IMG/VR virus record: IMGVR_UViG_3300043676_000014
Coordinates: 1-64,000 of that record
Length of the DNA stretch: 64,000 bases
Reading direction: 5' to 3' (one strand)
From: a virus
Lineage: Duplodnaviria > Caudoviricetes
Numbering within the stretch: the stretch's first letter is position 1; the number at the start of each line of letters is the position of its first letter. The translations under genes were made by a program, and so were the position numbers. The notes beneath the pieces were generated by a model that ran no database searches, was not told the origin of the DNA, and saw only the letters and a list, made by a program, of their open reading frames with translations. Positions 29,367 to 45,758 of this stretch are shown here, in pieces.

Positions 29367-30044
29367 CTATAGCGTTATGATAACCGCTGGCTGGCGACGA
29401 AGCCACTCTGCTTGGCCCTTGGCGCCCTTGCGTTTCTTTTTGCCCCAAGCAACGCCGGCAGGACTGCTGGCCCAGGCGTCGATCGCGCCGAACAGTGGTG
29501 TCTCGTATCCGAAGGTGATCTTGGCGACGTTGCCGAACTTTTGCTTAACCTCTGGAAGGGTGGCGACCGTTTGGTAGACGCCATCAGGAGCCTGCGACGA
29601 CCATCCTCGCTCGATACGCCTCGCGTAGGGCTGTATATTGAAATACTTGTAAACCCTGGCGACTGGCGGCGGCGCGCCATCTTCAACCACCACACCGTCC
29701 GCGATCAGAACGTGTGACTTCTGATAGCGTCCAGACTTTACCGGAGAGAATCTTTCCAGCATCTCTCCGACAAACACGACCGCCTCAAACACCAACTCGA
29801 ACTCGACGTAAACGCCGATGCCGTTTGGCTTGGCGGATAACAGCGGAGCTCCTAGTCTGCCGTCAACCGAGACCGTGTACGGCGGAACACTACCGAGAAC
29901 TCTTGCGTTCTGCGCCTTGGCGTCGTCGATTCTTTCCTGAGCGAACTCAGCGAATAATTGCGTCTGCGCTTCTTTCGTAAAGATCTTCGGTGCCACGTAT
30001 TTGAAATTCAGGTTGAACGGCGTGACCTTGACTCGAACCGCCAT
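29367..30044 (-). CDS. Neck protein (HK97 gp10-like)
   Basis: SPVKSGRY, N.QPYARRIE.G.S.QAPDGVY. Confidence 0.7.
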   Translation of the reverse strand: MAVRVKVTPFNLNFKYVAPKIFTKEAQTQLFAEFAQERIDDAKAQNARVLGSVPPYTVSVDGRLGAPLLSAKPNGIGVYVEFELVFEAVVFVGEMLERFSPVKSGRYQKSHVLIADGVVVEDGAPPPVARVYKYFNIQPYARRIERGWSSQAPDGVYQTVATLPEVKQKFGNVAKITFGYETPLFGAIDAWASSPAGVAWGKKKRKGAKGQAEWLRRQPAVIITL

Positions 30045-30654
30045 GCCTTACTCCAAGCGCTTCAGCCAAGGACATTTTCGGATAAGCCGTCAGCGCCGAG
30101 TGCTCACCGGTATTGATGACCTCGACACCGAGAGACTTGAACTGCGGCGCGCAGGCATCCAGCGCAACGCGCCATGACGCCGTCCTCGCGGCATCTGGCT
30201 TGCCGACGCCGCGTTGATCCGGACTCCAGTGACCACCGTTCATATCGAAGCCAACCAGAACGATCTTCTTCGCTCCAAATTGAATGGCTAGGTTGATCGC
30301 CTGAAACCCGGAGAAGCCGCCGCCGGTCCGCAGACCGCAACCCAGCACTCCAATCTCTCCCGTCAATATCTCAGCGCGTGGCTTGAGACTGACTTTCCTC
30401 AACTTGTAAACCCTGCACGCCGTAGGAGACGGAGAGACCTTCATTCCCTTGAACTTCGGAGCGCCCTGGTTGGCGAGCCACCAGCCGACGTCGAGCGCGT
30501 ATAGAACATCCGCGGTCGGCAACAGCCTCCATGAACTCTTGATAACTATCGAGCGAAACGATCCCGGTTCAATCTTTGCTGCGCTTGGGCCAGTGCCGAC
30601 GATGACTGCCGTTTCACCAGACCAGTCAGGCCACTCAGCCGATCCGTTCGTCAA
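29947..30654 (-). CDS. Maf/DUF115-like (sialyltransferase-like) nucleotide-sugar transferase, paralog 2
   Basis: IVGTGPS...ADVLYALD..WW...SGFQAINLA..FGAKKIVLVGFDM. Confidence 0.7.
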   Translation of the reverse strand: MTNGSAEWPDWSGETAVIVGTGPSAAKIEPGSFRSIVIKSSWRLLPTADVLYALDVGWWLANQGAPKFKGMKVSPSPTACRVYKLRKVSLKPRAEILTGEIGVLGCGLRTGGGFSGFQAINLAIQFGAKKIVLVGFDMNGGHWSPDQRGVGKPDAARTASWRVALDACAPQFKSLGVEVINTGEHSALTAYPKMSLAEALGVRHGGSSQGHAVQPEFQIRGTEDLYERSADAIIR

Positions 30655-30865
30655 TTTCAGTCTTTGTCAGAATCGAGAGATCGACGCCTCTATCGATAAT
30701 CATTGTCTTCACACCCTGCGGCAGAATGCCTGTGAGATGCTTCCTGGTTCTCTCGGTTGCGTCCTGCGACATTGGCCGATCTGTTTTGACAACTAGAACA
30801 TCGCCGGGCGTCAACTGTAGTTTTGCTATCTCGAATGCACCGATAATCTTGATGGCGACTTCCAC
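30635..30865 (-). CDS. Hypothetical protein
   Basis: In operon. Confidence 0.6.
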   Translation of the reverse strand: MEVAIKIIGAFEIAKLQLTPGDVLVVKTDRPMSQDATERTRKHLTGILPQGVKTMIIDRGVDLSILTKTEIDERIG

Positions 30866-30869
30866 GATT

Positions 30870-31232
30870 CTATCCTAGCGCTTTCATTTCTATGCGTACC
30901 AGCACAGCCCCAATAAAGATCGGCAGCACCCCCTGGACGGTACGCTTACGTCCCGCCACCAATAGAGCGTCACCCTTGATAGGAATTCTGGGGTCGACTG
31001 CAGGAGGCGGACTATTTGGAGCCGACGGCCACACTGCCGCATCTATCTGAGTAGGAGATATGATGATCTTGAACTCTTGCTGGGAAATGGTGTCGACCAG
31101 CGGGTTAGGATTGAGATCGCGCACGAAGGCGGCACAATCCACGGAAGCTGCGCCTCGAGTCAGCGTGATGGTCTGACCGTCATTGGCTAGCGAGAAATCG
31201 AGATCGGCAATCTCCCTTTCTGCTTGCGTCAT
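30870..31232 (-). CDS. Head-tail joining/closure protein
   Basis: Size, position and IIISPTQ...P.KGD pattern. Confidence 0.6.
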   Translation of the reverse strand: MTQAEREIADLDFSLANDGQTITLTRGAASVDCAAFVRDLNPNPLVDTISQQEFKIIISPTQIDAAVWPSAPNSPPPAVDPRIPIKGDALLVAGRKRTVQGVLPIFIGAVLVRIEMKALG

Positions 31233-31894
31233 GCGAACGAAAGGCCATTCACATAACCGCCGCGAGTGAGGATATCCATCACTTCGCCGGGCACAGCCGA
31301 CGTATTAAGCTGTTTGTCAGAAACCCACCATTCTCGCCGACTCACACCGGTTATCTCGAGCATCTTCAAATTCGGATCACGCGATCCTTGAGCGATCTCC
31401 GCCTGAACGAATTTGATAGCTGCATATTTCAGGTCAGCCGGAACATCTTCATATCCTGCGCTGTATTCGATCACAGTATTGCCGCAAGGCCACCAGCCCC
31501 ACGGTCCGTTTGGCATCGTGTAATGATATCCAGCGATGTTCGCACGATAGAGAATTCCTGCAGCCGCATCGAGAGAGTATTCGGTCTCCGACAAAAGACT
31601 GCTCGTCTGCGTCACCGATACCAACTCGACTACAGGACGACGTGCCAGCACCAAAGACTTCTGCAAGCTCTTGAACAGAAATGTCTCGGTCACCGTCTCG
31701 AGCCGCATCGTTGGCTCTAGCGCACCCGCAGAAGGCACCTTGCACGCCTTGGTGATGACGGCGCTGACGTAGGCGCCGAGCGGTACGAGGGTTGCGTCCT
31801 GGCTGGAGTCGCCCGAACTTAAACCAGCTGCGGCTCGCAGTTCTGCCGTTGTGAGAAGTGACCTGTCATCATTTGGATCGGCGATGCTGAGCAC
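31229..31894 (-). CDS. Head-tail connector/adaptor protein
   Basis: ETVTETF...LVLARRPV..L.SV...YSAGY..VPADLK.A. Confidence 0.75.
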   Translation of the reverse strand: MLSIADPNDDRSLLTTAELRAAAGLSSGDSSQDATLVPLGAYVSAVITKACKVPSAGALEPTMRLETVTETFLFKSLQKSLVLARRPVVELVSVTQTSSLLSETEYSLDAAAGILYRANIAGYHYTMPNGPWGWWPCGNTVIEYSAGYEDVPADLKYAAIKFVQAEIAQGSRDPNLKMLEITGVSRREWWVSDKQLNTSAVPGEVMDILTRGGYVNGLSFA

Positions 31895-31895
31895 G

Positions 31896-32171
31896 TCAGA
31901 GATTCTTCATCTTGAGTTTACAGGTTCTGTCATAGGTTCGACCGCCGGCCGTCACGACGCGGTTTTGCAGCAAATAGGAATCTCCGGCCGTTCCGCCCGA
32001 TACCCATACCGTTGTCGTTGTGTCCGTGTTGCTGTCGCTGTTCTTGGTGATTCCAGCAGGCACCGTCCATGTCGACGTGCTGATGGTGTCCGTATCCAAC
32101 AGTAAAGCCCAATCGACACCGTAGTCCTTGACCTCGTCAGGGTCTTTCGGCGGCGTCCAACTCAGGGCCAT
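31896..32171 (-). CDS. Putative fibre adaptor (small virion protein)
   Basis: KDPDE.KDY.VDW...I.TSTW...TVW.SGG..G..Y...N.V.T..GR. Confidence 0.65.
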   Translation of the reverse strand: MALSWTPPKDPDEVKDYGVDWALLLDTDTISTSTWTVPAGITKNSDSNTDTTTTVWVSGGTAGDSYLLQNRVVTAGGRTYDRTCKLKMKNL

Positions 32172-32183
32172 GCGATGGACTTT

Positions 32184-34259
32184 CTATGCCGGAATTTGTC
32201 GGCTCTCGGAAGCAAGCGAGATAAGCCTGTATTCAGCGCCTACTGAGATCATTCGATCTTCGGAGACGATCGCTATGGACCTGTCTTCCGCAGCAATCGA
32301 AATCACACAATCCGGATTGATCGGAGTATAGAGTCCGATCGTAAAGCCAGCGTCAGCGCCTGTGAGTGCGTAACTCCCCGCCGATGCGGGAAGCCATGAT
32401 CTACTGATAAGAGCCGCGTTGTTGCCGGTCAGGCTGTAGCTGCCAGTGATCGCATTCAACTTGCGGCTGATCGCAAGATTGACTGCGATGCCGGTCAGAG
32501 AATAGGCGCCAGCAACCGCCGCGAGTTTGCGCCGGACCGTGACATTGGCTGCCGCGCCAGTGAGAGCATAATTACCAGCGCCAGCAACCAGCGTGTAGGC
32601 CGATAAGCCGCCGCTCTTGGTCAGCGCGGCGTCGCTGCCGGTTAACGCATAACTTCCGGCAACGGCCGCAACACGACGACCGATCTTAAGTGCCGCCGCT
32701 GCTCCGGCTACAGCATAGGATCCGGCAACTGCCGACAGAACGTGCGCGGCCTTGAGCGCTGCCACGGCGCCGTTGACAGAGTACGAGCCGGAGACGGCGG
32801 ATAGTTTTGATGCCTTGTCAAGAGTGGCGGCAGTTCCGGTGACGGCATACGAACCAGCCGCCGCGGCCAGAGCGCGCGTTGCCCGCAATGTCGCTGCAGT
32901 CCCGGAGACAGCATATGACCCGACACCAGCAACGACGACGCGTCCGTATTTTACAGTGGCAGCAGTTCCGTTGAGCGCGTAACTTCCGGCACCAGCAGAG
33001 ACATTGAGTCCGCGCTTGATAGATGCTGCCGTGCCGGTGACCGAATAGGATCCCGCAGCAGCGGCAAGAATATAGGTTCGGCGGAGTGTTACTGCCTGAC
33101 CAGAGACCGCGTATGAACCGGCGCCAGCGCCTAGAGAGTACCCCTTCCTGAGAGTGGCCGCCGTGCCCGTGACCGCATAAGAACCCGAACCGGCGGCTAA
33201 AACCCAACCATGTTTGATAGACGCCGCGGTGCCCGTAAGCGAATAAGAACCAGCGCCTGCGGACGATCGCCATGCATGGAGCAAGGTAGCCGCAGTGCCG
33301 GACGCTGCATACGAACCAGCAGCAGCCGTGGTGCGCCTTCCGGCCTTGATCGTCGCCGCCGTACCGGTTAGGGCGTAAGAACCTCCTGCCGCACTAAGGA
33401 TGGTATTGGCAGTATAGGTGATAACGATGAGGCCCTGCTGCCCCGTGCCACCGGTTCCCAAACCAGCACCACCGCCGCCTCCACCGTAATTTGTGCCGTT
33501 GCCGCCGTTGCCTGCGGCAGATCCGCCGCCGCCTCCACCACCGCCAGTCGCCGCGCCGACCACCGAAGGCGTAGTCGTGTCGGGTAAGTGGGTCGACGTC
33601 CACATGCCGGTCGCGGCAGTTGGGGTAACTCCCGCACCAGACCCGCCCGCGCCGCCCGGTCCGCCACCGTTGGCGTTGGTGCCAGCCGTGCCAGCACTGG
33701 TCGTACCAGCACCGCCATTACCACCCGCGCCGCTTGTTCCTCCGCCAGAACCGCCGCCGCCGCCGAAGTCCGCACCGGCCGTCGTGTTGTCGCCCGCACC
33801 ACCAGTGCCACCGACACCACCGGTGCCAGCCGCGCCGCCGCCGCCGCCGCCCGTGAGCGCCGTCGCACCGCCGAGGCCGCCAGGGCCGCCGTTGAATGTT
33901 GTGGCACCGCCGATGCCACCGGTGCCTCCAAGGCCACCGGTCGCAGATGTAGCGCCCTTGCCGCCTCCTGCCGAGACCGTAGCCGCGGCGAGCGACGATC
34001 CATTGAACCAGGTGTCGCCGCCGTTAACGCCCGCTGCACCTGTCGCGCCGACCGAGAGATTGAGCGCTCCGGAAAGACCGGCGACATTTGTTATCTTCCT
34101 GTATTGACCGCCGCCGCCGCCACCGGCTCCAGCACCCGCCGCAGTCCTACCGCCGCCGCCGCCGCCGATGACCTCGATGCTGTTTGTTGCCGTCCAGTCG
34201 GCAGGGATTGTGAAAGTGCCGGCACCAACCGCCGTGATGAATATGACTTTGACGGTCAT
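32184..34259 (-). CDS. Gly-rich, 22-aa-repeat virion fibre-like protein
   Basis: N-terminal poly-Gly domain, then 16 repeats of AxxGSY(A/S)(L/V)(T/S)GxxAxL. Confidence 0.75.
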   Translation of the reverse strand: MTVKVIFITAVGAGTFTIPADWTATNSIEVIGGGGGGRTAAGAGAGGGGGGQYRKITNVAGLSGALNLSVGATGAAGVNGGDTWFNGSSLAAATVSAGGGKGATSATGGLGGTGGIGGATTFNGGPGGLGGATALTGGGGGGAAGTGGVGGTGGAGDNTTAGADFGGGGGSGGGTSGAGGNGGAGTTSAGTAGTNANGGGPGGAGGSGAGVTPTAATGMWTSTHLPDTTTPSVVGAATGGGGGGGGSAAGNGGNGTNYGGGGGGAGLGTGGTGQQGLIVITYTANTILSAAGGSYALTGTAATIKAGRRTTAAAGSYAASGTAATLLHAWRSSAGAGSYSLTGTAASIKHGWVLAAGSGSYAVTGTAATLRKGYSLGAGAGSYAVSGQAVTLRRTYILAAAAGSYSVTGTAASIKRGLNVSAGAGSYALNGTAATVKYGRVVVAGVGSYAVSGTAATLRATRALAAAAGSYAVTGTAATLDKASKLSAVSGSYSVNGAVAALKAAHVLSAVAGSYAVAGAAAALKIGRRVAAVAGSYALTGSDAALTKSGGLSAYTLVAGAGNYALTGAAANVTVRRKLAAVAGAYSLTGIAVNLAISRKLNAITGSYSLTGNNAALISRSWLPASAGSYALTGADAGFTIGLYTPINPDCVISIAAEDRSIAIVSEDRMISVGAEYRLISLASESRQIPA

Positions 34260-34302
34260 CGGCTATCCGCCGTTGAATTGCATCATCACCTGCGGGATCG
34301 CA

Positions 34303-34677
34303 TTATGAAGCATCCCAAACGGGGCGTTCATCAAACTGGCCGACGCAAAAGAACCTGTGCTTTTTCCCGCAATGGCAATGGAAAATGTAAATGTCCGGTG
34401 CCTGTTCGTCGGGGTGACTTTTCCGCGCCTCAACTTCGTGGTTTTCAGGGTGTCGACAACAGGAAGCGATCTGCTGATTTTGTTCCAGATGATCGATATG
34501 CTTCTGCTTTAAGTGACCTTCCGGAAGATCGGCCACCTTCACGCGCGGACATGCTGGGACTTGCGTCTCAGGCAATACTTCGCCCTTAAATGTCGCGTGG
34601 CGACGCGCCATCGCCTTCTGTGCCGGGGTGATAAACGGTGGACCAAGCGTAATAGTGCTAAGGGAATGCGGTTTCAT
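34303..34677 (-). CDS. Hypothetical Cys/His-rich protein
   Basis: CCRHP...HCHCGKKH. Confidence 0.6.
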   Translation of the reverse strand: MKPHSLSTITLGPPFITPAQKAMARRHATFKGEVLPETQVPACPRVKVADLPEGHLKQKHIDHLEQNQQIASCCRHPENHEVEARKSHPDEQAPDIYIFHCHCGKKHRFFCVGQFDERPVWDAS

Positions 34678-34710
34678 GCTAAGATAATCCGGCTTTTAGA
34701 GGAACTGCAT

Positions 34711-34905
34711 ATGGCCGAAATTGAAATCATCCAGATTGGCAAGTGGTCGGTGGCGCTTGAGCGCCGAAGCGGCGGCACCATGCTCCGTTTTGACTTTGCA
34801 GACGCACAGCCGCTCGTGCTTTTGGTTCCTAAAACCGAGGCATCGCAAATCGCTGAAGCGATACTCAACCAGTACAAAACCCCACCACCTTCGCGATTGA
34901 GCTAG
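34711..34905 (+). CDS. Small opposite-strand hypothetical protein
   Basis: GAGG RBS before MAEIEIIQ; fills the gap between minus-strand genes. Confidence 0.45.
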   Translation: MAEIEIIQIGKWSVALERRSGGTMLRFDFADAQPLVLLVPKTEASQIAEAILNQYKTPPPSRLS

Positions 34906-35330
34906 GCAATAGTGAAAAGGCTTGCCCCGAAGTCCAGGGTAAGCGTTTCTCCTGTAGCGATCGTGAACGTCGCACCGTAATCCCACGACGCCCACACATC
35001 GTTCGCAGCAGACGTATCATCATAGATCGTGATGTAGCGCCCGGTCGTGCTGCCACCGAGATTGCCACCCGATGCCGTCCACACAACGTCAGTTCCGGTT
35101 GCCGTCACCGTGCCGCCCGAGCGCGTCGAGTTGAACGTGATATCGGCGCCGTCCGTCGTGTAGCCGTTCGTGCCGCTGATCTGGGTCAGATCTGCAATAG
35201 TGCTATCGGTGGCTACCGTAGGCGCATCTGTGTGAATGATCGCCTTCCAGACGTCGGTTGTGCCGAAGGCATCGATAAGCTTGTTGCAAAGCTTCTCGAT
35301 AGCGGTTTCGTATTTTACATATGTCGCCAC
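34902..35330 (-). CDS. Putative virion structural protein (Thr-rich beta-sandwich)
   Basis: GYTTDG...DVVWTASGG...IYDDT...DYG...GET.T.DF; AGGAGG RBS. Confidence 0.7.
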   Translation of the reverse strand: MATYVKYETAIEKLCNKLIDAFGTTDVWKAIIHTDAPTVATDSTIADLTQISGTNGYTTDGADITFNSTRSGGTVTATGTDVVWTASGGNLGGSTTGRYITIYDDTSAANDVWASWDYGATFTIATGETLTLDFGASLFTIA

Positions 35331-35373
35331 GGCGCTCTCCTCCTAAGATCGCCATTTGCGGCGTTGGTGACTG

Positions 35374-35952
35374 CTAATTCTCTATAATCTCGCTTCGATG
35401 CCATAGTCCAAGAATGCGACCGTGGTCAGTAATCGATTGTTGCGGCGCTGGTAGATTGAACGGCGCGACAGTCAAATTGAGCGGACGAAACATGCCGCAC
35501 TTCGGAATATCTGCGTTCTCTTCGTTACCGTGAGACGTCGCCAGCAGCCATGAGATGCCGCTGGTACGGAAGTTCTTGAGCGCTACCGACACCATCTCGT
35601 TAGGCAGATGTTGCAGAAAATCCCTGCACAGCATCAGGTCTGCGGGCGGCAGCAAGTCCCGGCAGATATCCAGTGTCATTACCTTTTTGGAACGCGGCCT
35701 GAACTGAAACGGTTGCGACTCCCGCGACCTTGCCGAGATGCAATGCTCCTCGTCGTAGTCGCATCCGATGTAGTCGACACTGGATAAATCGGTTCGCGCC
35801 ATCCAGTTGAAGTCACCGCACGGCGCATCCAGCAGAGTCCTGATTTCAAATTCTGCCAACAGTTGCGGCAACCACGCTCTGATGCCAGACGTACTCGCCA
35901 CCATCGATCCGGCACCGCATCCGGTCTCCGGCAGACCGGCGGTGAATGGCAT
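35374..35952 (-). CDS. Class I SAM-dependent methyltransferase
   Basis: GAGS...LLDAPCGDFNWM...YIGCD...DLMLCRDFLQHL; start placed at MPFTAG. Confidence 0.85.
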   Translation of the reverse strand: MPFTAGLPETGCGAGSMVASTSGIRAWLPQLLAEFEIRTLLDAPCGDFNWMARTDLSSVDYIGCDYDEEHCISARSRESQPFQFRPRSKKVMTLDICRDLLPPADLMLCRDFLQHLPNEMVSVALKNFRTSGISWLLATSHGNEENADIPKCGMFRPLNLTVAPFNLPAPQQSITDHGRILGLWHRSEIIEN

Positions 35953-35971
35953 CCTCAATGCTAACGCTCCA

Positions 35972-36148
35972 TTACTGGCGCGTTCCGAAAGGCGCGACAT
36001 TAGCGAGCGATAGCTGCTGCTGTGGCGCCATGTCGGCAGGCGTCAGATATTCGACACGCTTCAACTTGCCGTCTGGGTAATACTCGATGGCTTTGACCAG
36101 GACACACTTAAACTTGTGCTCGAGACCGCAGATTTGACATTTCGCCAT
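35972..36148 (-). CDS. 58-aa zinc-binding-like protein (not in ORF track)
   Basis: MAKCQICGLEH...C..VKAIEYYPDGKLKRVEY. Confidence 0.55.
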   Translation of the reverse strand: MAKCQICGLEHKFKCVLVKAIEYYPDGKLKRVEYLTPADMAPQQQLSLANVAPFGTRQ

Positions 36149-36152
36149 TGCG

Positions 36153-36770
36153 TCACGACCAGTTGTTGCGAACCCAATCCAGATGCATCAGATCTGGCTG
36201 CTTCGGTTTTCCGTGCATGTAAACGACGCGCGCTTCACCGATGCCGATATCTCGCACGCGATGCGCCTTTAACGAAAGCACCTGTCCCGGCCACAGATCA
36301 TCTATCGCCTGCCACGGAAACGTCCGCAGCCATTCCATGTCGTTCTCGCCGCGCCAGTCGTCGAACACCTTGCGATGTCCAGCCGGCACCAGCGCTACGC
36401 CGTTGATCGATTGCTCAGGCTTGTACGGATTGCGCGGCAGAGCGATCTTGTCGCCCGTCAAACAATATTCCGCCATGTGATCGATGTTGCGAACGATGAT
36501 CGTATCCAGCCCCACCAGGATCATCGGCTCGTTAAGTTTGTATGGCTCCGTGAAGCATCCGTAGTCCAGTTTCTTGCTGACCAATGGTTGCTGAAAGATC
36601 GGTTCCGAGAACTTCCTTGGCCTGTCGGAGAACAGCACGAACCGGAACGGGACCGTCAGGTTTCGTGCGAAGCCGCGATAGAGTTTGTCGACCCAGCCTT
36701 CGTTGTAGCATCGAGAGAAGTCTTTGGAGTGTTTGTTAGCACTCCAAAGACATGACGCCACCGTGAGCAT
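36153..36770 (-). CDS. Glycosyltransferase-like protein (GT-A)
   Basis: Start MLTVASCLW; V.KL.RG..RNL.VPF.F..F.D, GLDTII, VVYMHGKPK; paralog of 39918-40574. Confidence 0.7.
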   Translation of the reverse strand: MLTVASCLWSANKHSKDFSRCYNEGWVDKLYRGFARNLTVPFRFVLFSDRPRKFSEPIFQQPLVSKKLDYGCFTEPYKLNEPMILVGLDTIIVRNIDHMAEYCLTGDKIALPRNPYKPEQSINGVALVPAGHRKVFDDWRGENDMEWLRTFPWQAIDDLWPGQVLSLKAHRVRDIGIGEARVVYMHGKPKQPDLMHLDWVRNNWS

Positions 36771-36796
36771 CTTATTTTTGTGCAGCGCAGACCTTT

Positions 36797-37132
36797 TTAG
36801 TTTGCGAGTCCCGATGCCTCGGCGCGACCAAGGTCGCCCATCGCCTGTGCTGAGTTGAAGGTGACCGGAATTGCCGGTGTCGCGTTGCTCACCATGCTTT
36901 GACCAGCGGTGAGTCCGCCGACGCCTAAACCGCTCAAGTAGTGACGGTACGGGTAGTACGGATAGACCGGAAGGCCGGGCAAGTACCGATCGACATAAAC
37001 GCGCTCGGTCACAGGCTTGCCGTCGATTTCTGCCACGCGCGCCTTGATGCGCGACCATTGGGCCTTCGTCGGGCAACCCGTGAAGGCTTCTGTGAAGCCA
37101 TCGAACCAAGCCTTGAATTCAGAAGGTGTCAT
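36797..37132 (-). CDS. Hypothetical protein
   Basis: MTPSEFKAWFDGF, a phage-type N-terminus; AAGGAG RBS. Confidence 0.65.
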   Translation of the reverse strand: MTPSEFKAWFDGFTEAFTGCPTKAQWSRIKARVAEIDGKPVTERVYVDRYLPGLPVYPYYPYRHYLSGLGVGGLTAGQSMVSNATPAIPVTFNSAQAMGDLGRAEASGLAN

Positions 37133-37153
37133 GTGATTCTCCTTTGGTTATAT

Positions 37154-38783: not shown

Positions 38784-39826
38784 TTTGCTGCCGACTTACT
38801 GCGTCTTATGGCAGCCACGGTCCTCTCTCGAAACTCTGGATCTGCCCACCTTGCCTTAGCAAGAGCGCTTCTCTTTTCGCTGAATTTCGTCTCTACCCGC
38901 TTTTTGCCATTGGCCCGTGCAATTTTTTGCTTTTCTCTGTAAGCCGGGTCGGCCCATTTGGCCCTAACCATAGCGCTTTGTTTTTCCCTAGAACCATCCT
39001 CAGAAAATCTAGCCTTACGTCGGTCTGGGTTTGATGACCATAAAGATTTTGCCATCTCACTTTGCCGTGCCCGCCTTTCTTGATCGGACCACGCCGTCAG
39101 TAACTTGTCCCTGAAGTCAGTCAATTCCCATATCTTTGACTGATGCTTACTGGCCTTAGCGCGCCTTTCCGGAGTGTCTTTAGCCTTGAGTGCCGCCAGC
39201 ATTTTACTGCGGATACTATCGTCTTGCCAATTTTCTTTTGATCTTTTGCTTATTCTGCTTCGATATTCTGGAGTATCGCGATCCTTCAAATACTTCTTTC
39301 GGTAAATTGGATCAGCCCACCTAACCAGCATAGTCTCTCTTTGACGCTTAATCTGCTCAGGATCAGACCAAAACATCTTCATAATTTTACGATGCTCATC
39401 GCTCGCCCACATATCCCTAGACATTTTTGTTCGGCGGGCTCGATACTCTGGGTCTTTCCACATAATTCTGAGCGTCTCAGAATCCATACCTACACCACCG
39501 GGCCTCACGTTCCACAATTGTCCAGACGGAATGGAGGAAATTGATTCTATCTCCAGCGAGTACGCCTGATCCGATGTAGGGCCATCAGCGACAATCTTAT
39601 GATCTACTGAGCGACCAGTCCTTAGTGCCTTGGCGAGTCGATTATACAATATTGTTGACTTAACTTTTTCACCAGCGGCGCGCCGTCTATTTAAGGTGGC
39701 GGCAATTGAGAAATGATTATGAACCCTGCGACCGGTTCCCTTGCCGATATAGCGAACGACATCATCAACAATGAGTTGATAGACGTATGAACCGGACGGG
39801 ATTTGTTGTATTCGAGTCTTAGCCAT
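38780..39826 (-). CDS. GIY-YIG endonuclease with repeated C-terminal DNA-binding modules (free-standing homing endonuclease-like)
   Basis: YVY...RYIGKG..RR...H...E...N; repeated W.DP.YR units. Confidence 0.8.
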   Translation of the reverse strand: MAKTRIQQIPSGSYVYQLIVDDVVRYIGKGTGRRVHNHFSIAATLNRRRAAGEKVKSTILYNRLAKALRTGRSVDHKIVADGPTSDQAYSLEIESISSIPSGQLWNVRPGGVGMDSETLRIMWKDPEYRARRTKMSRDMWASDEHRKIMKMFWSDPEQIKRQRETMLVRWADPIYRKKYLKDRDTPEYRSRISKRSKENWQDDSIRSKMLAALKAKDTPERRAKASKHQSKIWELTDFRDKLLTAWSDQERRARQSEMAKSLWSSNPDRRKARFSEDGSREKQSAMVRAKWADPAYREKQKIARANGKKRVETKFSEKRSALAKARWADPEFRERTVAAIRRSKSAAK

Positions 39827-39892
39827 CTGCTGAACCTCGCACGTTCCGCTCTTGGTTAGAGCCGTCAGGGCGTTTCAGCACCTTGGCGGCTC
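39821..39892 (-). promoter_or_regulatory. Structured leader: hairpin + CTAACCA + SD + ATGGCT
   Basis: GAGCCG...CGGCTC stem; same layout as 11908-11976. Confidence 0.5.
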
Positions 39893-39917
39893 GCTTATTT
39901 ATGACTGCTTCGGCGAC

Positions 39918-40574
39918 CTATCGCCAGTGTTGTTTGACCCAGTCCAGACTTGTAAACCGCGAAGGATCGCGCCAACCTGGAAAGGCGACTATGCGCGCGT
40001 CGTTTGGTAGATCGTTGCCCTTGGGCCACGTTGTTTTTTGAAACGAATAGACGCCACTCTCTGGCCCCGCCTTCCACTCAGCATAATTCGGGATTCGATC
40101 CCAAATAAACGCTTGGTCGTCTGGAAACGAATCGTACCTTACCATCGACGCGTTCTTGAGACTAAAATCCTTCCACACATTCTGATGCTCGCCAGCACGG
40201 AGCATCTGTAAAGATCCATTCACCGGACATGGGTTGCTGGAATTTGCTCCTGTTAAGATAACAAAGGACTCATCCCTATCGAACAACACATCTAGAGAAC
40301 CGGTTACTACCACATCAAGATCGATGCAGACGATACGATCACCGGGCTTGATGCCTTGTCTCTCCTGCCATTCCGTTGAGAAATATCTAAGACGACAGAA
40401 GCACCCTGGAATCTTGGTGAGATACTCGTCCTCTTCATCTGGAGCAAATACCGCAAAACGATGCTCTTGTTCCAAGTTACGAGAGACAGAAGACTTCAGC
40501 CTTTCAACATAGTGTCCGGGATACTTGTCTGACCATCTCCACGTCGTAATCCAGAGTGCGCCTAGACCTTCCAC
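39918..40574 (-). CDS. Glycosyltransferase-like protein (GT-A, DxD)
   Basis: KY...YVERL...V.RNL; CIDLDVVV; NGS; DQ; IVAFPG..DP. Confidence 0.75.
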   Translation of the reverse strand: MEGLGALWITTWRWSDKYPGHYVERLKSSVSRNLEQEHRFAVFAPDEEDEYLTKIPGCFCRLRYFSTEWQERQGIKPGDRIVCIDLDVVVTGSLDVLFDRDESFVILTGANSSNPCPVNGSLQMLRAGEHQNVWKDFSLKNASMVRYDSFPDDQAFIWDRIPNYAEWKAGPESGVYSFQKTTWPKGNDLPNDARIVAFPGWRDPSRFTSLDWVKQHWR

Positions 40575-41140
40575 AGCACACCGATGCCATTGTCTTTCTC
40601 TTCCATCTTTATCTCTTCGTGCCGGTAACCGGACTTCAACTCATTCCAGAATTCCGGAACGTCGATGCGGTAGCTTGCGAAATCCGCCGGCCGCTTCCAT
40701 GAGATATCGTGGAGCGCAACGATCTTGTTGCTCATCGCGCCGTAGTTATTCCAATCCTTTGCGATATACGGAGCCGTGTGATTTCCGTCTATGAAAACGC
40801 AGTCGTATGGCCCCAGCGCGCGTACCTGTTCAACGACATCCCGCGCCGTGCTGTCGCCCCAGATCACGCGAGCGTCGTGGCCCATATCCTTCAGGTCTGC
40901 GATGCAGGCGAGCAGCGATACCCGCGTCTGCGCCCAGTCTTTTGTCCCGCCCGGAAGATCGACCGCTACCATCCGCGATCCCTTCGGCAGAGCATCGCCG
41001 ACGCGACGGAACGATCCGCCGAACTTGGACCCGATCTCGAGATAACTTGTGACGCCTTCCGTCTTCAGTATTTCAGCAAACCGCGCGTGTTCGGCTTCAT
41101 TCTGCAGGGCCTTGTACGACGCCATCAGTCCCTCGCCCAT
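40562..41140 (-). CDS. Class I SAM-dependent methyltransferase (Methyltransf_24-like)
   Basis: YLEIGS.FGGS...GDS...DCVFIDGNH...ALHDI. Confidence 0.85.
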   Translation of the reverse strand: MGEGLMASYKALQNEAEHARFAEILKTEGVTSYLEIGSKFGGSFRRVGDALPKGSRMVAVDLPGGTKDWAQTRVSLLACIADLKDMGHDARVIWGDSTARDVVEQVRALGPYDCVFIDGNHTAPYIAKDWNNYGAMSNKIVALHDISWKRPADFASYRIDVPEFWNELKSGYRHEEIKMEEKDNGIGVLWKV

Positions 41141-41188
41141 ATCGCGTCGCTAAGGTATCTCATGATTGCCGACCGAAATTCTGCATTC

Positions 41189-41848
41189 CTATCTCCAACT
41201 CAAACAATAATCACCGTTCATTTCAAATTTCTGTTTTGCACCCCAAGATTTCAGTAGATCAAGCGATGCATACTGGTCTTTTTCATAAGTAAGCTTTCCG
41301 TTCTTTCCGTTACCCTTTTGCTCAAGGATAATAACGGGCTGATGAGCGCGAATGGTTTTCTCGCCGCCCTCAAGGACGAAAAACTCATAATTTTCTACGT
41401 CAATCTTCATGAAATCGATTGCGTCGCTAAATGTGAATTCGTCCAAACGGCGCATCGTTGTGCCGCCAGCCTCCTCCAAGATCTGCGTGCTACCGGTACT
41501 GCCGTCGAAATACTTCAGTCCTACCGTTCCGCTCTTGTTGCCAAGAGCGCAGTTGTGAACTTCCCAGTTCTTAGAGCCATGCATATTCAATAACAGGCAT
41601 TCAATGTGTTCTGCAACCGGTTCAAACCCGACAACGGTCCTAAACTGCTTCGCCAAATGCATCGACCAAAGCCCAACATGCATTCCGACGTCTAAAGCAA
41701 AACCCTTTCGCTTAACGTATTGTAGAGCAGACGCGAGTTTTTGGTACTGATAAGTACCCTTCCCACCCACCTTCGGAGACGACAACACCATCTTGCAAAG
41801 GTGCCGCTCATTTTCCGGAAACCAAATCCCCTCTACTTGCTTCATCAT
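41189..41848 (-). CDS. FkbM-family methyltransferase
   Basis: ALDVGMHVGLWS, FEP, ALG, DFMKIDVE.YE..VL.G, PVIILE. Confidence 0.9.
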   Translation of the reverse strand: MMKQVEGIWFPENERHLCKMVLSSPKVGGKGTYQYQKLASALQYVKRKGFALDVGMHVGLWSMHLAKQFRTVVGFEPVAEHIECLLLNMHGSKNWEVHNCALGNKSGTVGLKYFDGSTGSTQILEEAGGTTMRRLDEFTFSDAIDFMKIDVENYEFFVLEGGEKTIRAHQPVIILEQKGNGKNGKLTYEKDQYASLDLLKSWGAKQKFEMNGDYCLSWR

Positions 41849-42432
41849 TAGCGACCCCAGATCGCAGCGACGCCGAGATCATTTGAAATGTAAGACGTAT
41901 GAATCCGCTTCAACCCAGCCTGCTTGAGATCGCGATCGAGCCGCCTGATCTCCTGCTCGTTTTCGTCAGGCGACAACGCCGTGCCACGCCACCCGAAATA
42001 TTTCTTCGTCCAATGCCCGAAGAAGATCATTAATTCGGTCAACTTGTCTTCCGGCATGACGCGCTTCAGCTTGTGATACACCGCCAAGCACAGCACGATA
42101 TCGTACCCGCTCATTTCGAATATCTTAAGCGCCTTTGGACCCTTGGTCAGATCGACGACCTCGAACCGGCCTTCCGTCGATCTAAGGTCAGCGAAGACCT
42201 CGCGCGCCACCATGATTCCATCTTCATAGATGTCGCAGCCATGAACGATGGACGCATATTGTTCTGCGAACTGATAGCCAACCATGCCGCGGTTGCAGCC
42301 GATGTCGAAAACCGTTTTTCCCTTCGCCCTCAAAACCAGATCGGTGATTCCATCGAGGCGGACATTGTTCAATCCGCCAACACGCCTTTGAACCTTGTAG
42401 GAGGTGCCGACAGGTTGCATCCAATCAACCAC
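41848..42432 (-). CDS. Class I SAM-dependent methyltransferase
   Basis: KTVFDIGCNRG...GCD...YDIVLCLAVYHKL. Confidence 0.85.
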   Translation of the reverse strand: MVDWMQPVGTSYKVQRRVGGLNNVRLDGITDLVLRAKGKTVFDIGCNRGMVGYQFAEQYASIVHGCDIYEDGIMVAREVFADLRSTEGRFEVVDLTKGPKALKIFEMSGYDIVLCLAVYHKLKRVMPEDKLTELMIFFGHWTKKYFGWRGTALSPDENEQEIRRLDRDLKQAGLKRIHTSYISNDLGVAAIWGR

Positions 42433-42443
42433 GAAACCGCTCC

Positions 42444-42710
42444 CTAGTTTCGTGACCAGCCGCCATGCATACTAGTCCCGAGTTCATCAGCAGGAGGCGG
42501 CGGCTCCTTTGGCTTTTTGGGAGTGACGTTCGTCAGTTCTTTTATCTCAACTTCCCCATCGACCTCTGCCATGATCTTCAGGGTAATTTCGGCGATGCCC
42601 GCACCGCCGCCAGCATGATAAATGATCTCGGTAGCGGCAATGTCGCGCCCGTCCAATTGGACTTTCCCGTGACCAGTCTCGTCAAGAGCAAACGTCAGCT
42701 TGTGCGTCAT
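42444..42710 (-). CDS. Hypothetical protein
   Basis: In operon. Confidence 0.55.
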   Translation of the reverse strand: MTHKLTFALDETGHGKVQLDGRDIAATEIIYHAGGGAGIAEITLKIMAEVDGEVEIKELTNVTPKKPKEPPPPADELGTSMHGGWSRN

Positions 42711-43482
42711 GTTTCAGGTATCCATTTGCAGATTCTAGAACCTCATCTACAGATATCGCATCCATCGCTGCCTTGCAGTGCTTGCACAATGACAACGATC
42801 CACAAGCTTCAGCGCCACCGGTTAAATTGGTGTGGCTAGAATAGCCAGTAACAGCGGGAGGAATAAAACCACCAAACATAACCACCCCAGGAGCCCCCAC
42901 AGCAGCCGCGGCATGGTGCAGACCTCCCTCGGGTCCGATGTAGAGCGCAGCGCGAGCGAGAATTGCGACCGCATGCCGGAACGTCGGCGAGATGATCTGA
43001 CGTGCTGCGGATATCCTGAACCCCTTGCCGTAGCTGAATTGAACAACGTCGTAGCCGTCACACTTCAGTTTTTCTGCAACCTCCGAGTAACGCGCGACCG
43101 GCCACTGCTTGTTTGGAGCGACAGACTTTTGTTCCGGTACGTTAGGCTCGATAACGACAAATCCTCTGCCGGCCGTCTCGGCGTAGGCACGCTCCTGTTT
43201 TGTCAGGAAGACCTCGCCAGGAATTGCTTTGAATTCATAATTCCAACACCACCGATTGCCTTCACGCCGATTGTAAAGTCTGTTGCCCTTATAGAATCCG
43301 AACCATTCTATATTGCCAGACTTCTCCGTACCGGGCGGGGCGACGTTAGGGTTGCCGCGAAAGATTTGCTCTGAATGCAGATCCCAGATTATTCGCGTCC
43401 CGTCTCCGAACGCTATTCGCTTGCCTCTTACTGACGCGCCCTTGGCAAAGCCCGAGGCCAAAATTTGATCACCTATCCCGAC
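42682..43482 (-). CDS. GT9 (heptosyltransferase-like) glycosyltransferase
   Basis: GIGDQI N-terminal motif; NKQWP; YIGPEGGLHHAAAA.G.PGVV.FG; start uncertain. Confidence 0.8.
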   Translation of the reverse strand, partial: VGIGDQILASGFAKGASVRGKRIAFGDGTRIIWDLHSEQIFRGNPNVAPPGTEKSGNIEWFGFYKGNRLYNRREGNRWCWNYEFKAIPGEVFLTKQERAYAETAGRGFVVIEPNVPEQKSVAPNKQWPVARYSEVAEKLKCDGYDVVQFSYGKGFRISAARQIISPTFRHAVAILARAALYIGPEGGLHHAAAAVGAPGVVMFGGFIPPAVTGYSSHTNLTGGAEACGSLSLCKHCKAAMDAISVDEVLESANGYLKHDAQADVCS

Positions 43483-43508
43483 GTTAGCCTCCCACCATCA
43501 CTAGCGCT

Positions 43509-44261
43509 TTAGGCACCGAGACTCAGTGGACCACGCGCCCAGTCGCTCAAACTATCTCGCCACTCGTCAGCCAACTCGCAATCGCCATAGCCTGGCATGT
43601 CAGGAAGCCCGAGCGTGAAGTGACCGATGTTTATGTTGTCGATCGGCTCAGTTTCTCCGATCAAATAATTCCACGACTGATCCAGCTCTCCGATATCGCA
43701 TTCAGCAAGCCAGAAGAATTTATGCAGAAATCGCCCAGGCGTATTATTTAGAACGTCGAGCGTGAGGGCCTTGTTCGCAGGATGATCGCAATTGAAAAGC
43801 ATGATCGAGGATGCGTTTTTCCTCGGATATGATTGTTGTATCTGACCATCCATTTTGATGCCGGATTCCTGTATGCGCTTATGATTCACGCAGTACAGAG
43901 CTTTGGAATGATCCAGTCCCTCGAACAACCTTGCAACATTCGATCGAAAGATAACGTCGCCGTCACAGAATAGCGCCCAACCGGTCTTTGCGATGTAGGG
44001 AATAAAAAACCTGCTGTTGGCATGCTCTGTACTTTGCGGAGCATCGCTCACGACGTCCCACATAATCGGCTTGTCGACCACGCACTTACGATACTCGATT
44101 GGCCTCTTATAGATGCCGGCCTTTTGCAGATCGGCCAAGATAAGTCCGTATATCGGTATCGGTCGCGTCAGATGACGACGACAGGATGACCTTGCAACAG
44201 CAAACCCTGACGCCTCACGAGGATCCCATCCCAACCAGATACTGTCGTTGAGCGCCATCAT
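43509..44261 (-). CDS. Nucleotide-diphospho-sugar transferase (GT-A; CDI-like)
   Basis: GWDPRE, STE..NSRF.IP, ALFCDGD, YPRKN.SS.MLFNC, WNYL, HFT.G.P. Confidence 0.85.
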   Translation of the reverse strand: MMALNDSIWLGWDPREASGFAVARSSCRRHLTRPIPIYGLILADLQKAGIYKRPIEYRKCVVDKPIMWDVVSDAPQSTEHANSRFFIPYIAKTGWALFCDGDVIFRSNVARLFEGLDHSKALYCVNHKRIQESGIKMDGQIQQSYPRKNASSIMLFNCDHPANKALTLDVLNNTPGRFLHKFFWLAECDIGELDQSWNYLIGETEPIDNINIGHFTLGLPDMPGYGDCELADEWRDSLSDWARGPLSLGA

Positions 44262-44921
44262 TTAAGCATTCACAGAATCCAAATCAGCCACAAAATCTTC
44301 AGCCTTGCGCCGCTCAAAGCACCTCAGAACACTGATATCCGAAGCATTGAACACCTCGACACCACGCTCTTTCAGTTTCGGCGCCGCCAGTTCAAAGGCG
44401 CGGCGCCACCGACGAAAGTTGTCTTCCGTTGGATTATTCCCCTGCGGCCAGTTATTGCGTCCATACCAGTGAGCGCCGCTGCGATCGTGCATGTCGAAGC
44501 CGATCAGCAGGACTCGTTTAGCGCCGAACTGCACCGCGAGATTGAGCGCCTGGAAACCCGAATTTCCGCCTGAACCAAGTTTACCTGACGGCTCGAATAT
44601 CAGATCGTCCGACTTGATCGTAATTTCGACGTGGCGGATATCCAGATATGGCGCCGGCCGGTGGTCATTGCTACCGGCCCATGTAACCTTCAGTCCCTTG
44701 AACTCCTGAAGACCAAGCCTCTTCTTCCACCACGCCGCGTCACACCCGTAGACCACGTCAGCCCATGGTGCGAGTTCGACGTTCTCCTTGATCGCAATGA
44801 CAGGCATCTTGCCGCGAAGCGCCGGGATATTGGCCTTCTTTGCCGACGGTCCGGAGGCTATTATCGCGACCGGTCCAGACCAGTCCAAATACCAATCCGG
44901 TCTCAATCTGCCAGTCCTCAA
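44262..44921 (-). CDS. Maf/DUF115-like (sialyltransferase-like) nucleotide-sugar transferase, paralog 1
   Basis: IIASGPS...ADVVYGCDAAWW...GGNSGFQALNLAVQFGAKRVLLIGFDM. Confidence 0.72.
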   Translation of the reverse strand: MRTGRLRPDWYLDWSGPVAIIASGPSAKKANIPALRGKMPVIAIKENVELAPWADVVYGCDAAWWKKRLGLQEFKGLKVTWAGSNDHRPAPYLDIRHVEITIKSDDLIFEPSGKLGSGGNSGFQALNLAVQFGAKRVLLIGFDMHDRSGAHWYGRNNWPQGNNPTEDNFRRWRRAFELAAPKLKERGVEVFNASDISVLRCFERRKAEDFVADLDSVNA

Positions 44922-44987
44922 TCACTCGGGCTTGTGGTGGCGGTGGTGTCTCGGTAGACGTAAGGTTGCACCAGCGAAGGACGCCAC

Positions 44988-45758
44988 ATGAAAACGCCGA
45001 ACATCCTGATCGCCACGCCAGCCCATGGCGGCTGGGTAAAAATTCAGACAATGGACAGTATATTCATGATACAAAACGCGCTCGCCGCCCGCGCCAGTTT
45101 TAAGTTTCGGCATATCTCGCTATCGGACATTGCGTTAGCGCGGAACTTGCTGGCATCGGCGTTCTTGGGCGATACCACTTACACGCATCTGCTTTTTGTC
45201 GACGCCGACATGACGTTCACACCAGATGTTGTCGCCGCACTATTGGATGCCGACAAGCCGGTGATCGGCGCCATTTACCCCATGCGCAGGTTGAATCTCG
45301 CCAAATTTTTCGAGTCCGCCAAAACCATGACGATGGAGAGAGCCATTGCCGCCGCGTCTGAGTTCGCTGCTACGCTCAATCCGGGAGCCACAACCATCAA
45401 CCACGGGCTACTCCCGGTCAGGGGTATTGGCATGGGACTGTGCCTCATTCGACGCGATGCCCTTGAGATTATGTCGGTGTCCGGCATCCCCCAGAGCAAG
45501 CCGGGCCACACCGCCGGAAATTCGGATCGACTTGACCACATCCTTTTCGGGTTTTTCGATCACCTAACTGCGCCGGGCGGTGGGCAGCTATCTGAGGATT
45601 ATTCTTTCTGTGAGCGATGGCGACTTTGCGGCGGCGAGATTTGGGGCCTCGCCACAGATCATGTCGGGCACATCGGAGAGATGGAATTTCGCGCCAACTT
45701 CATCGATCGGCTACATGCTACAGGACAAACGACAGCCGGATATAGTGGTCTTAGGTGA
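44988..45758 (+). CDS. Glycosyltransferase-like protein (GT-A), opposite strand
   Basis: IATP..GG, ARN.L, THLLFVDAD, G.G..LI.R, SEDYSFC.RW...GG.IW, HIG. Confidence 0.8.
   Translation: MKTPNILIATPAHGGWVKIQTMDSIFMIQNALAARASFKFRHISLSDIALARNLLASAFLGDTTYTHLLFVDADMTFTPDVVAALLDADKPVIGAIYPMRRLNLAKFFESAKTMTMERAIAAASEFAATLNPGATTINHGLLPVRGIGMGLCLIRRDALEIMSVSGIPQSKPGHTAGNSDRLDHILFGFFDHLTAPGGGQLSEDYSFCERWRLCGGEIWGLATDHVGHIGEMEFRANFIDRLHATGQTTAGYSGLR

Follow-up and report, generated by a model that had tools for sequence, protein, structure and literature searches.

Among the head and neck genes of a tailed phage, in the first 64,000 nucleotides of IMG/VR record IMGVR_UViG_3300043676_000014 (the whole stretch analysed, hereafter the window), lies a large cluster of glycan-building and glycan-modifying enzymes, which is, as gene content and synteny indicate, an enlarged member of a mobile, modular and widespread cassette family and not a unique assembly. 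The record is a single 94,146-bp virus genome with direct terminal repeats, judged complete, of which the window is the first 64 kb; the phage, of soil origin, is classed as temperate because a tyrosine integrase is encoded at 6056-7084. The cassette family appears to be real, conserved and so far undescribed, and the window holds one of its largest members. With moderate confidence, we read the cluster as a late cytoplasmic pathway that would build a methylated oligosaccharide on one or more virion proteins from host sugar pools, possibly started by a Ser/Thr-O-linked ulosonic acid. The gene content, the folds, the synteny and the families missing from the genome were observed here; the timing of expression, the donor sugars, the acceptor and the benefit, be it shielding, adhesion or mimicry, are inferred.

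The cluster is bounded by the portal genes (46808-50221) and the head-tail adaptor gene (31229-31894). The inventory comprises 13 enzymes: eight glycosyltransferase (GT)-like proteins including two Maf-like ones, four S-adenosylmethionine (SAM) methyltransferases (MTs) and one left-handed beta-helix (LbH) acetyltransferase. One of the Maf-like genes is placed among the neck genes, outside the main cluster. A preliminary description of this DNA, made from its letters alone, had listed such genes, and nearly every one that it named was recovered on the same strand and at the same coordinates through open reading frames and Pfam, PHROG and NCBIfam searches. The genes are as follows (aa, amino acids; AF2, AlphaFold2; pLDDT, predicted local distance difference test).

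44988-45758, plus strand, GT-A-like glycosyltransferase (phrog_1574, 4e-21; Anp1, 2.6e-5, under the cut-off)
44262-44921, minus strand, Maf/DUF115-like transferase with a GT42-like fold, cassette copy, 219 aa (phrog_4603, 4.9e-38)
43509-44261, minus strand, GT8/RfaJ-like GT-A glycosyltransferase (phrog_28018, 3e-39; no Pfam match)
42682-43461, minus strand, GT9 (heptosyltransferase-family) protein, short form, 259 aa (PF01075, 1.5e-10, 41.2 bits against a cut-off of 22)
42444-42710, minus strand, 88-aa open reading frame that may not be a gene (no family match; homologue seen in locus L049 only)
41848-42432, minus strand, class I SAM methyltransferase MT1 (Methyltransf_31/25/12)
41189-41848, minus strand, FkbM-family SAM methyltransferase (PF05050, 7.8e-17; phrog_8156)
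40562-41140, minus strand, Methyltransf_24 (O-methyltransferase-like) protein MT24 (PF13578, 3.9e-9)
39918-40574, minus strand, phrog_1962 glycosyltransferase GTAa with a D-L-D motif (phrog_1962, 1.7e-8)
38780-39826, minus strand, GIY-YIG/HNH homing-endonuclease-like gene (LEM-3 GIY-YIG, 6e-5; phrog_10820 HNH; phrog_314 homing endonuclease)
37950-38783, minus strand, KpsC/WbbB-like GT-B glycosyltransferase (AF2 pLDDT 77; Foldseek match to KpsC, E 1e-5)
37154-37666, minus strand, LbH acetyltransferase (Hexapep, 2.5e-23; NeuD/PglB/VioB, 7.8e-20, below the cut-off)
36153-37109, minus strand, phrog_1962 glycosyltransferase GTAb, partner of the LbH protein (phrog_1962, 8e-32)
35374-36000, minus strand, SAM methyltransferase MT4 (phrog_3382, 6e-37; Methyltransf_12, 2.9e-4, below the cut-off)
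29947-30654, minus strand, second Maf/DUF115-like gene, 235 aa, in the neck module (phrog_4603, 1.3e-29)

The assignment of the Maf/DUF115-like pair, already proposed in the preliminary description, is borne out by the common phrog_4603 match, and the two copies (44262-44921 and 29947-30654) are 38% identical to each other (E 2e-34). The AF2 model of the cassette copy (pLDDT 92) has the fold of Maf: it aligns with Magnetospirillum Maf 5mu5 (Z 14.6, root-mean-square deviation (rmsd) 3.5) over 186 residues in the range 262-517 of 5mu5, which includes the catalytic residues E324 and D415 of MmMaf, and it also aligns with the Campylobacter sialyltransferases CstI/II (Z 11-13) and with archaeal MptE (HPPK; Z 11.6). 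Some close homologues of the window protein carry a precomputed PF01973 match. Bacterial Maf O-glycosylates flagellin and can also transfer 3-deoxy-D-manno-oct-2-ulosonic acid (Kdo) to Ser/Thr, and its catalysis needs two acidic residues and a serine, which are D272, S334 and D357 in CbMaf (bioRxiv 10.1101/2020.06.03.131540). In the phage family, for which 1817 homologues were found, D61, S121 and D143 are invariant and have the same spacing as these three CbMaf residues, in a comparison of spacing and not a residue-level superposition. The phage proteins are like bacterial Maf (5mu5 and the enzymes of G. kaustophilus and C. botulinum) in the central catalytic fold, in matching residue spacing and in being soluble and cytoplasmic, but they are about 210-235 aa long, whereas bacterial Maf is about 630 aa with N- and C-terminal domains.

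The GT-B enzyme at 37950-38783 was recognised at the level of fold, in keeping with the KpsC/S-like nature first suggested for it. Its closest full-length structural matches are the retaining beta-Kdo transferases KpsC, WbbB and KrkA (Z 11.0 to KpsC 6mgd and 10.5 to WbbB 8csd; range 9.2-11.0, 215-230 residues aligned), whereas other GT-B enzymes reach Z 8.8 at most, mostly over a single domain (about 8.7 for half-domain GT1 matches); the rmsd to KpsC and WbbB is about 5 Å and the lead over generic GT-B matches is moderate only. The protein, whose family numbers 655 homologues, has no Pfam, NCBIfam or PDB sequence match. It resembles KpsC (GT107) and WbbB (GT99) in its two-Rossmann GT-B architecture and differs from them in showing no detectable sequence similarity; the known enzymes use lipid-linked acceptors. 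Alignment-profile searches of the Maf-like, GT8-like and KpsC-like proteins against PDB sequences gave no meaningful match, and fold comparison alone succeeded.

For the other transferases, family assignments range from firm to approximate. GT9 at 42682 is above the PF01075 cut-off, as had been anticipated, and its best PDB match is WaaF 1psw (1.4e-4); against the NCBIfam models for heptosyltransferases I/II/III it scored 22-29 bits where the cut-offs are 134-185, and it is not an equivalog of them. The gene at 43509-44261, once described as a ‘CDI-like GT’, is better called GT8/RfaJ-like: its homologues are named ‘LPS biosynthesis glycosyltransferase’ (LPS, lipopolysaccharide) by the Joint Genome Institute (JGI), its D-G-D motif (D100, D102) is invariant, and its look-alikes in the ESM-Atlas are viral GT clusters, one of them with PF01501 on 12% of its members. 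The genes at 36153 and 39918 had been taken for GT paralogs; both belong to phrog_1962, but their mutual identity is just 23% (E 0.01). GTAa is 30% identical to a ‘glycosyltransferase’ of Tetraselmis viridis virus S20, and the true start of GTAb may be later than annotated because its first ~90 residues are not shared and its relatives align from residue 85-115. The opposite-strand GT-A (44988-45758) was upheld by its Atlas structure, which has a template-modelling (TM) score of 0.85 to a Glycos_transf_2 cluster; it is specific to the window, being missing from all related loci surveyed. PDB sequence searches with this plus-strand GT and with the 36153-37109 protein gave nothing.

The decorating enzymes are clearer in type. 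All four SAM methyltransferases, including FkbM at 41189, were confirmed by Pfam and PHROG matches. At 37154 an LbH acetyltransferase is indeed present, whereas the glycan O-acetylation implied for it in the preliminary description did not hold: the PDB entries that it matches best are nucleotide-sugar N-acetyltransferases (7s3u, 7e-29; a WxcM-like protein, 1e-25; WlbB; QdtC), and it looks like an enzyme of the nucleotide-linked amino-sugar N-acetyltransferase type, not a glycan O-acetylase.

Nearly all genes from ~55.4 kb down to ~13 kb share the minus strand and make up a single late operon in the order TerS-TerL-MCP-portal ... adaptor-neck-tube-TMP-endolysin (TerS and TerL, terminase small and large subunits; MCP, major capsid protein; TMP, tape-measure protein), with distal tail proteins between tape measure and endolysin. 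The structural genes on the two sides of the cluster are the following.

54742-55374, minus strand, terminase small subunit at the start of the late operon (phrog_1206, 6e-18)
53066-54742, minus strand, terminase large subunit (phrog_9, 4e-102)
50913-52904, minus strand, prohead protease-scaffold-major capsid fusion (phrog_617, 3.5e-132)
48746-50221, minus strand, portal (phrog_2271, 3.7e-123; phrog_12, 5.6e-103)
46808-48727, minus strand, portal-associated repeat protein PORT2 (phrog_1289, 2e-88 over 7 separate stretches)
45751-46811, minus strand, two small proteins of 138 aa and 209 aa, the latter glycine-rich and fibrous in appearance
31229-31894, minus strand, head-tail adaptor at the downstream edge of the insertion (phrog_442, 8.6e-18)
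29367-30044, neck protein, 28922-29359, tail terminator, and 28308-28787, tail tube, all minus strand (phrog_16336, phrog_169, PF13554, PF08813)

In Rhizobium phage RHph_X2_26 the genes follow the same order (TerL-MCP-portal-second portal protein-head-tail joining) with the cluster absent, and the 15 kb of the window from 46.8 kb to 31.9 kb are therefore regarded as an insertion. The genes within it, one plus-strand GT aside, are co-oriented and appear coupled, as had been noticed before, with tight or overlapping junctions (0, -1, -4, -13 and 11 nt among others). Promoter- and terminator-like sites in the cluster occur at chance level only, with no excess, and the cassette is probably transcribed together with the late virion operon. 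When the nucleotide sequence of the cluster was compared with 50,697 phage records, there were zero matches. G+C content is 51-53% in the cassette core (38001-44000), 55-57% in the flanking structural genes and 63% in the fibre gene region, differences that are consistent with separate horizontal origins.

The cluster enzymes seem to be soluble, and the genome offers them no partners of its own for donor synthesis or export. In agreement with the preliminary description, none of the enzymes has a convincing transmembrane segment by KD-19 hydropathy (maximum at most 1.75, located within Rossmann cores), and neither a flippase nor GtrA was found. With positive controls, searches of the whole genome detected no cytidylyltransferase of the KdsB/NeuA type, NeuB, NAD-dependent epimerase/dehydratase or sugar nucleotidyltransferase; no GtrA (PF04138); no Wzx (PF01943) or initiating phosphoglycosyl transferase (PF02397); and no thymidylate-synthase/dCMP-hydroxymethylase (PF00303) or C5 DNA methyltransferase (PF00145). 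Tet/JBP (PF12851) likewise gave no match in the genome, though its positive control gave none either. Since genes for nucleotide-sugar synthesis are missing, the pathway must draw on host nucleotide sugars. By its gene content, the genome is without export machinery of its own and without a known route to a glycosylatable DNA base.

A survey of synteny, which had been suggested as a check on the preliminary description, showed that the cassette recurs at 54 loci, mostly with head-gene neighbours. Searches were seeded with two cassette proteins and yielded 9 and 49 IMG/VR loci, along with 5 in bacterial genome assemblies, onto which all late proteins of the window and the head proteins of one Bradyrhizobium prophage were mapped; a locus (numbered with L below) was counted when it held at least three cassette genes, and the 54 correspond to roughly 46 after removal of evident duplicates. 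The sources are IMG/VR viral contigs and assemblies of Bradyrhizobium, Mesorhizobium, Pseudorhodoplanes and Phenylobacterium. The commonest form has seven genes in ~4.7 kb, namely Maf-like, GT8-like, GT9, MT, Methyltransf_24, phrog_1962 GT and KpsC-like GT; MT1 is found in 39 and MT24 in 37 of the loci. FkbM occurs in about 11 of them and mostly replaces the MT1-MT24-GT trio. The LbH gene and GTAb, the second phrog_1962 GT, always co-occur (16/16 loci), and this constant pairing suggests that they form a sub-module for the synthesis and transfer of an N-acetylated amino sugar. With 12-13 enzymes, the versions in the window, in its closest relative L004/L025 (a 104.6-kb contig) and in L057/L058 are the largest.

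The cassette has entered head modules at several points. A head gene is the recognised left neighbour in 41 of the 54 loci (PORT2 in 22, another portal family in 6, MCP in 5, and others), and the head-tail adaptor is the right neighbour in 7. Four positions can be distinguished: after PORT2 and before the adaptor, in the window and ~22 loci; between capsid and portal, in L008, L015 (Mesorhizobium sp. CA8), L054, L067 and others; between a phrog_145 portal and a phrog_247 scaffold/capsid, in Bradyrhizobium sp. URHD0069 and about ten viral contigs; and a few kilobases past a MuF-like head protein, in L036 and L045. Together these insertion points span two unrelated head modules. In loci with the other head module, the cassette ends in a 210-aa gene for a highly divergent DUF115/Maf-like protein, so that almost all longer cassettes have a recognisable Maf-type member; none was detected in the L012 cassette. 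The divergent gene lies at 15281-15913 in L014 and has homologues in L016, L020, L049, L050 and L056-L058; the L014 protein shares the three motifs of the window Maf-like protein, to which it is 21% identical (E 0.64).

Related genes are also found in cultured phages. Caulobacter phage CcrColossus gp126-131 comprise Maf-like, KpsC-like, GT8-like, MT and GT9 proteins and lie after the final tail gene and ahead of the lysis genes, and the cassette is present in eight further Caulobacter jumbo phages (CcrPW, CcrBL9, CcrSC, C1, C2, RB23, J4 and BL47). Pseudomonas phage PAJU2 has a mini-version, ORF010-012 (DUF115, an unknown protein and MT), between its head-closure and tail-terminator genes; the second Maf-like gene of the window (29947-30654) is in the same position as its homologue PAJU2 ORF010, which is one of three genes of that stretch labelled ‘structural protein’ in AP009624, on the basis of the GenBank record alone. 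In Tetraselmis viridis virus S20, two DUF115 genes, two GTs and an MT separate the likely capsid gene from the head-closure genes, and DUF115 homologues further include proteins of the P1 PmgO/PmgP region. The genes of CcrColossus, PAJU2 and S20 are like those of the window in that the same families are clustered and adjoin structural genes; they differ in being only ~29-35% identical, fewer and annotated mostly as hypothetical.

A function linked to the virion and exerted late is favoured because the enzymes are soluble and co-oriented with virion genes, because the cassette recurs at head/neck junctions in unrelated modules, and because a Maf-type enzyme takes part. The proposed pathway would run in four steps. 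First, the cut-down Maf-type enzyme would put an ulosonic acid, either Kdo from host CMP-Kdo (CMP, cytidine monophosphate) or a nonulosonic acid, on a Ser/Thr of the acceptor; a Gram-negative host always supplies CMP-Kdo. Second, the KpsC-like, GT9, GT8-like and other GT-A-like transferases would lengthen the chain in the fashion of an LPS core. Third, the LbH protein would N-acetylate a nucleotide-linked amino sugar, which its partner transferase GTAb would add. Fourth, the four SAM methyltransferases would cap sugar hydroxyls. The second Maf-like protein, whose gene belongs to the neck module, may modify proteins of the neck or tail or may travel in the particle.

Several observations weigh against glycosylation of the virion. 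The Maf-like pair scored 24.2 and 22.6 bits against Pfam PF01973 and did not reach the gathering cut-off of 34.6, and the window proteins consist of the central catalytic domain alone, the flanking domains of real Maf being missing. The nearest relatives of the GT8, GT9 and KpsC-like enzymes use lipid-linked LPS or capsule acceptors, not proteins. The plus-strand GT gene (44988-45758) breaks the minus-strand operon, which makes read-through from a head promoter uncertain. Neighbours were recognised by structural-protein queries only, and the 13 unrecognised left neighbours count as unknown and not necessarily structural. In the T4-like Pelagibacter phage Mosig (L070, 124.8-130.7 kb), the related genes lie beside genes for ribonucleotide reductase, primase and RuvC, not beside structural ones. 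An alignment of capsid proteins from cassette-bearing and cassette-free relatives revealed no cassette-specific Ser/Thr-rich extension, only one unconvincing 8-residue difference, and no conserved acceptor was found, since minimal cassettes are without the fibre module described below and phages with unrelated heads share no structural protein. The late cytoplasmic virion pathway first sketched in the preliminary description is thus partly supported: the head/neck neighbours, the lack of membrane or export parts and the Maf-type enzyme speak for it, whereas the search for an acceptor found none and Mosig stands as an exception.

The relationship of three core enzymes to LPS and capsule families (GT9 to heptosyltransferases, the second to GT8/RfaJ-like enzymes and the third to the beta-Kdo transferases KpsC/WbbB) raises the possibility that the enzymes work from the cytoplasmic side of the inner membrane, with lipid A-core or a Kdo-lipid linker as their substrate, and thereby alter the LPS core or the capsule of a cell that is infected or lysogenic; phage exclusion, progeny that do not stick to debris, or serotype conversion would be the outcome. 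Such remodelling of the LPS core is the main rival of virion glycosylation and a serious alternative, even though we consider it unlikely. A phage flippase would be unnecessary for it, as host MsbA could flip the modified core, the phage is temperate, and the occurrence of the cassette beside phage head genes in bacterial assemblies is consistent with prophages. The cassette, however, lies deep within the late operon, at several junctions between head genes, and shows no promoter or terminator signals that would serve it alone, and late expression gives little time for a change of the surface. Conversion genes usually lie at prophage ends or near tail-fibre genes, sites that differ from the late-operon position of the cassette. 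Moreover, Maf-type enzymes, whose known substrates are proteins, are included, and parts of the Gtr or membrane-acyltransferase type are not. The window resembles Gtr/Oac serotype conversion in having sugar-modifying genes on a temperate phage; Gtr/Oac enzymes, however, are membrane proteins, made in the lysogen, whose substrates are undecaprenyl-linked or periplasmic, whereas the window is without GtrA, transmembrane enzymes or expression signals of its own.

The neighbourhood of the Mosig genes bears on two further explanations. Since the Mosig cassette adjoins genes of nucleotide metabolism, the transferases could be thought to build a glycan on a modified base of phage DNA, and multi-GT phage operons that glycosylate 5-hydroxymethylcytosine exist (bioRxiv 10.1101/2023.12.21.572611). 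Hypermodification of DNA is nevertheless very improbable here: the genome is without the thymidylate-synthase/dCMP-hydroxymethylase and C5 DNA methyltransferase families, and the enzymes are of the Maf, KpsC, GT9 and FkbM types, not of DNA GT types, and are located in the head operon. The position of the Mosig genes outside the structural module would also fit a different target, such as a host protein (flagellin or pilin), a phage protein other than a virion protein, or a soluble or lipid small molecule, with the head operon as a merely tolerated insertion site. In its favour, Maf relatives modify flagellin and the search for an acceptor found none. Recurrence at several head/neck junctions in two unrelated head modules and the conserved second Maf copy in the neck module would both be unexpected for a neutral site, and we judge a target of this kind to be quite improbable.

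If virion proteins are indeed glycosylated, the candidates for the acceptor in this phage are the capsid protein and the fibre proteins beside the cassette, which are rich in glycine or in Ser/Thr. The fibre genes form a module of four (31896-35330).

34902-35330, minus strand, Ser/Thr-rich protein, 142 aa, 27% Ser+Thr (by translation)
34303-34677, minus strand, 124-aa protein (by translation)
32184-34259, minus strand, fibre-like protein, 691 aa, the N-terminal 290 residues 37% Gly, followed by 16 copies of a 22-aa repeat
31896-32171, minus strand, gp77-like fibre adaptor directly after the 691-aa fibre-like gene (PF23148, 4e-25)

This module abuts the cassette in the window and is enclosed, all four genes of it, by the cassette in L037; it is a candidate acceptor in these two. 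As a universal acceptor, the fibre protein was rejected, since the common seven-gene cassettes directly adjoin PORT2 on one side and the adaptor on the other and are not accompanied by fibre genes. The repeats of the 691-aa protein have the core G-S-Y-x-L-T-G. Tandem Repeats Finder detected no DNA repeat in the gene despite the 16 protein repeats, and an array kept in protein but not in DNA suggests that it is old and under selection.

To our knowledge, virion glycosylation has been demonstrated in only a handful of tailed phages, all of them mycobacteriophages, where it shields the particles from antibodies. In mycobacteriophages Che8, Corndog and Myrna, GTs encoded by the phage itself glycosylate the capsid and the tail tube (Freeman et al. 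2023, Cell Host Microbe, as summarised in PMC12363180 and PMC12619734). The cassette would be a variant of this virion glycosylation. The mycobacteriophage system (Che8 gp110, Corndog gp38, Myrna) is like the window in having phage-encoded soluble GTs linked to virion genes, and some actinophages likewise have methyltransferases near GTs. It is proven by experiment, operates in Gram-positive actinobacterial hosts and uses few GTs, with glycans at the C-termini of capsid and tail-tube proteins, whereas the cassette is a predicted system of proteobacterial phages and has 7 to 13 enzymes of Maf-like, GT8, GT9 and KpsC-like families. A C-terminal acceptor tail of the mycobacteriophage kind was not seen. 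The phage-database matches of the Maf-like, GT8-like and KpsC-like proteins and of GTAb included no mycobacteriophage, the GTs of Che8 and Corndog not having been compared directly. A search of the literature found no paper on a Maf/GT8/GT9/KpsC-like cassette, on Maf-like enzymes within phage particles or on glycosylation of the particles of phages that infect Proteobacteria. The cluster had at first been called far more elaborate than those of known tailed phages, which holds against the literature searched but not against uncultured relatives, in which cassettes of 7 to 12 genes are common.

A more specific form of the proposal, which is tentative and rather doubtful, is that phages of Gram-negative bacteria in soil and water attach Kdo, or a different ulosonic acid, directly to Ser/Thr residues of their virion proteins by means of the cut-down Maf enzyme, and that the KpsC-like, GT9 and GT8-like enzymes extend it, from host LPS precursors only, to a methylated glycan like the LPS inner core. 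The particle would then wear a copy of the host surface sugars, and the cassette would be a mobile ‘coat-changing’ module swapped between unrelated head modules. If virion glycosylation in general is correct, self-glycosylation would be a common trait among phages that infect rhizobia, caulobacters and other Proteobacteria, since there are thousands of metagenome homologues besides the cassettes at 54 loci, and it would employ a different enzyme toolkit, one that resembles the enzymes of LPS-core and flagellin glycosylation. It would bear on adsorption and host range in soil, on the persistence of particles and on the annotation of prophage cargo, and short Maf-like protein O-ulosonyl transferases would be of use in glyco-engineering. 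Because the cassette is also present in cultured Caulobacter phages, the question is directly testable.

Several minor features accompany the cluster. Three of them had escaped the preliminary description, namely the homing-endonuclease gene (38780-39826), the fibre module and the glycine-rich proteins (45751-46811). The homing-endonuclease-like gene is interposed between GTAa and the KpsC-like GT gene, and a 34%-identical counterpart occupies the same slot in L004/L025 and is in no other locus. The 138-aa and 209-aa proteins have no Pfam or PHROG match, and the 138-aa one is conserved in L019. The capsid fusion is 43% identical to PAJU2 gp03 and 40% to the MCP of RHph_X2_26; the nearest cultured relatives by capsid are PAJU2, RHph_X2_26 and Stx phages (38-43% identity). 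PORT2 is strongly acidic (net charge -45) and differs in length among relatives, with 335 aa in PAJU2, 474 aa in RHph_X2_26 and 639 aa in the window. A glycoside-hydrolase-like protein (phrog_2913, 8e-30) is encoded at 23040-23678 on the minus strand, directly after the tape-measure gene, and has a 40%-identical counterpart in the same position in Tetraselmis viridis virus S20. The related cassette of phage Mosig includes a putative sulfotransferase. In the Mesorhizobium sp. CA8 prophage (L015, 6963-9074), the capsid gene aligns over its full length to that of the window and its frame stops after 210 codons, which could mean that the prophage is decaying and the gene a pseudogene, that the sequence contains an error, or that the frame is recoded. 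In the metagenome-assembled Phenylobacterium genome (L017), the cassette is broken into two rearranged halves that enclose pieces of the capsid and portal genes, while a further piece of the capsid gene lies inverted at the edge; the locus resembles a prophage that has decayed or recombined.

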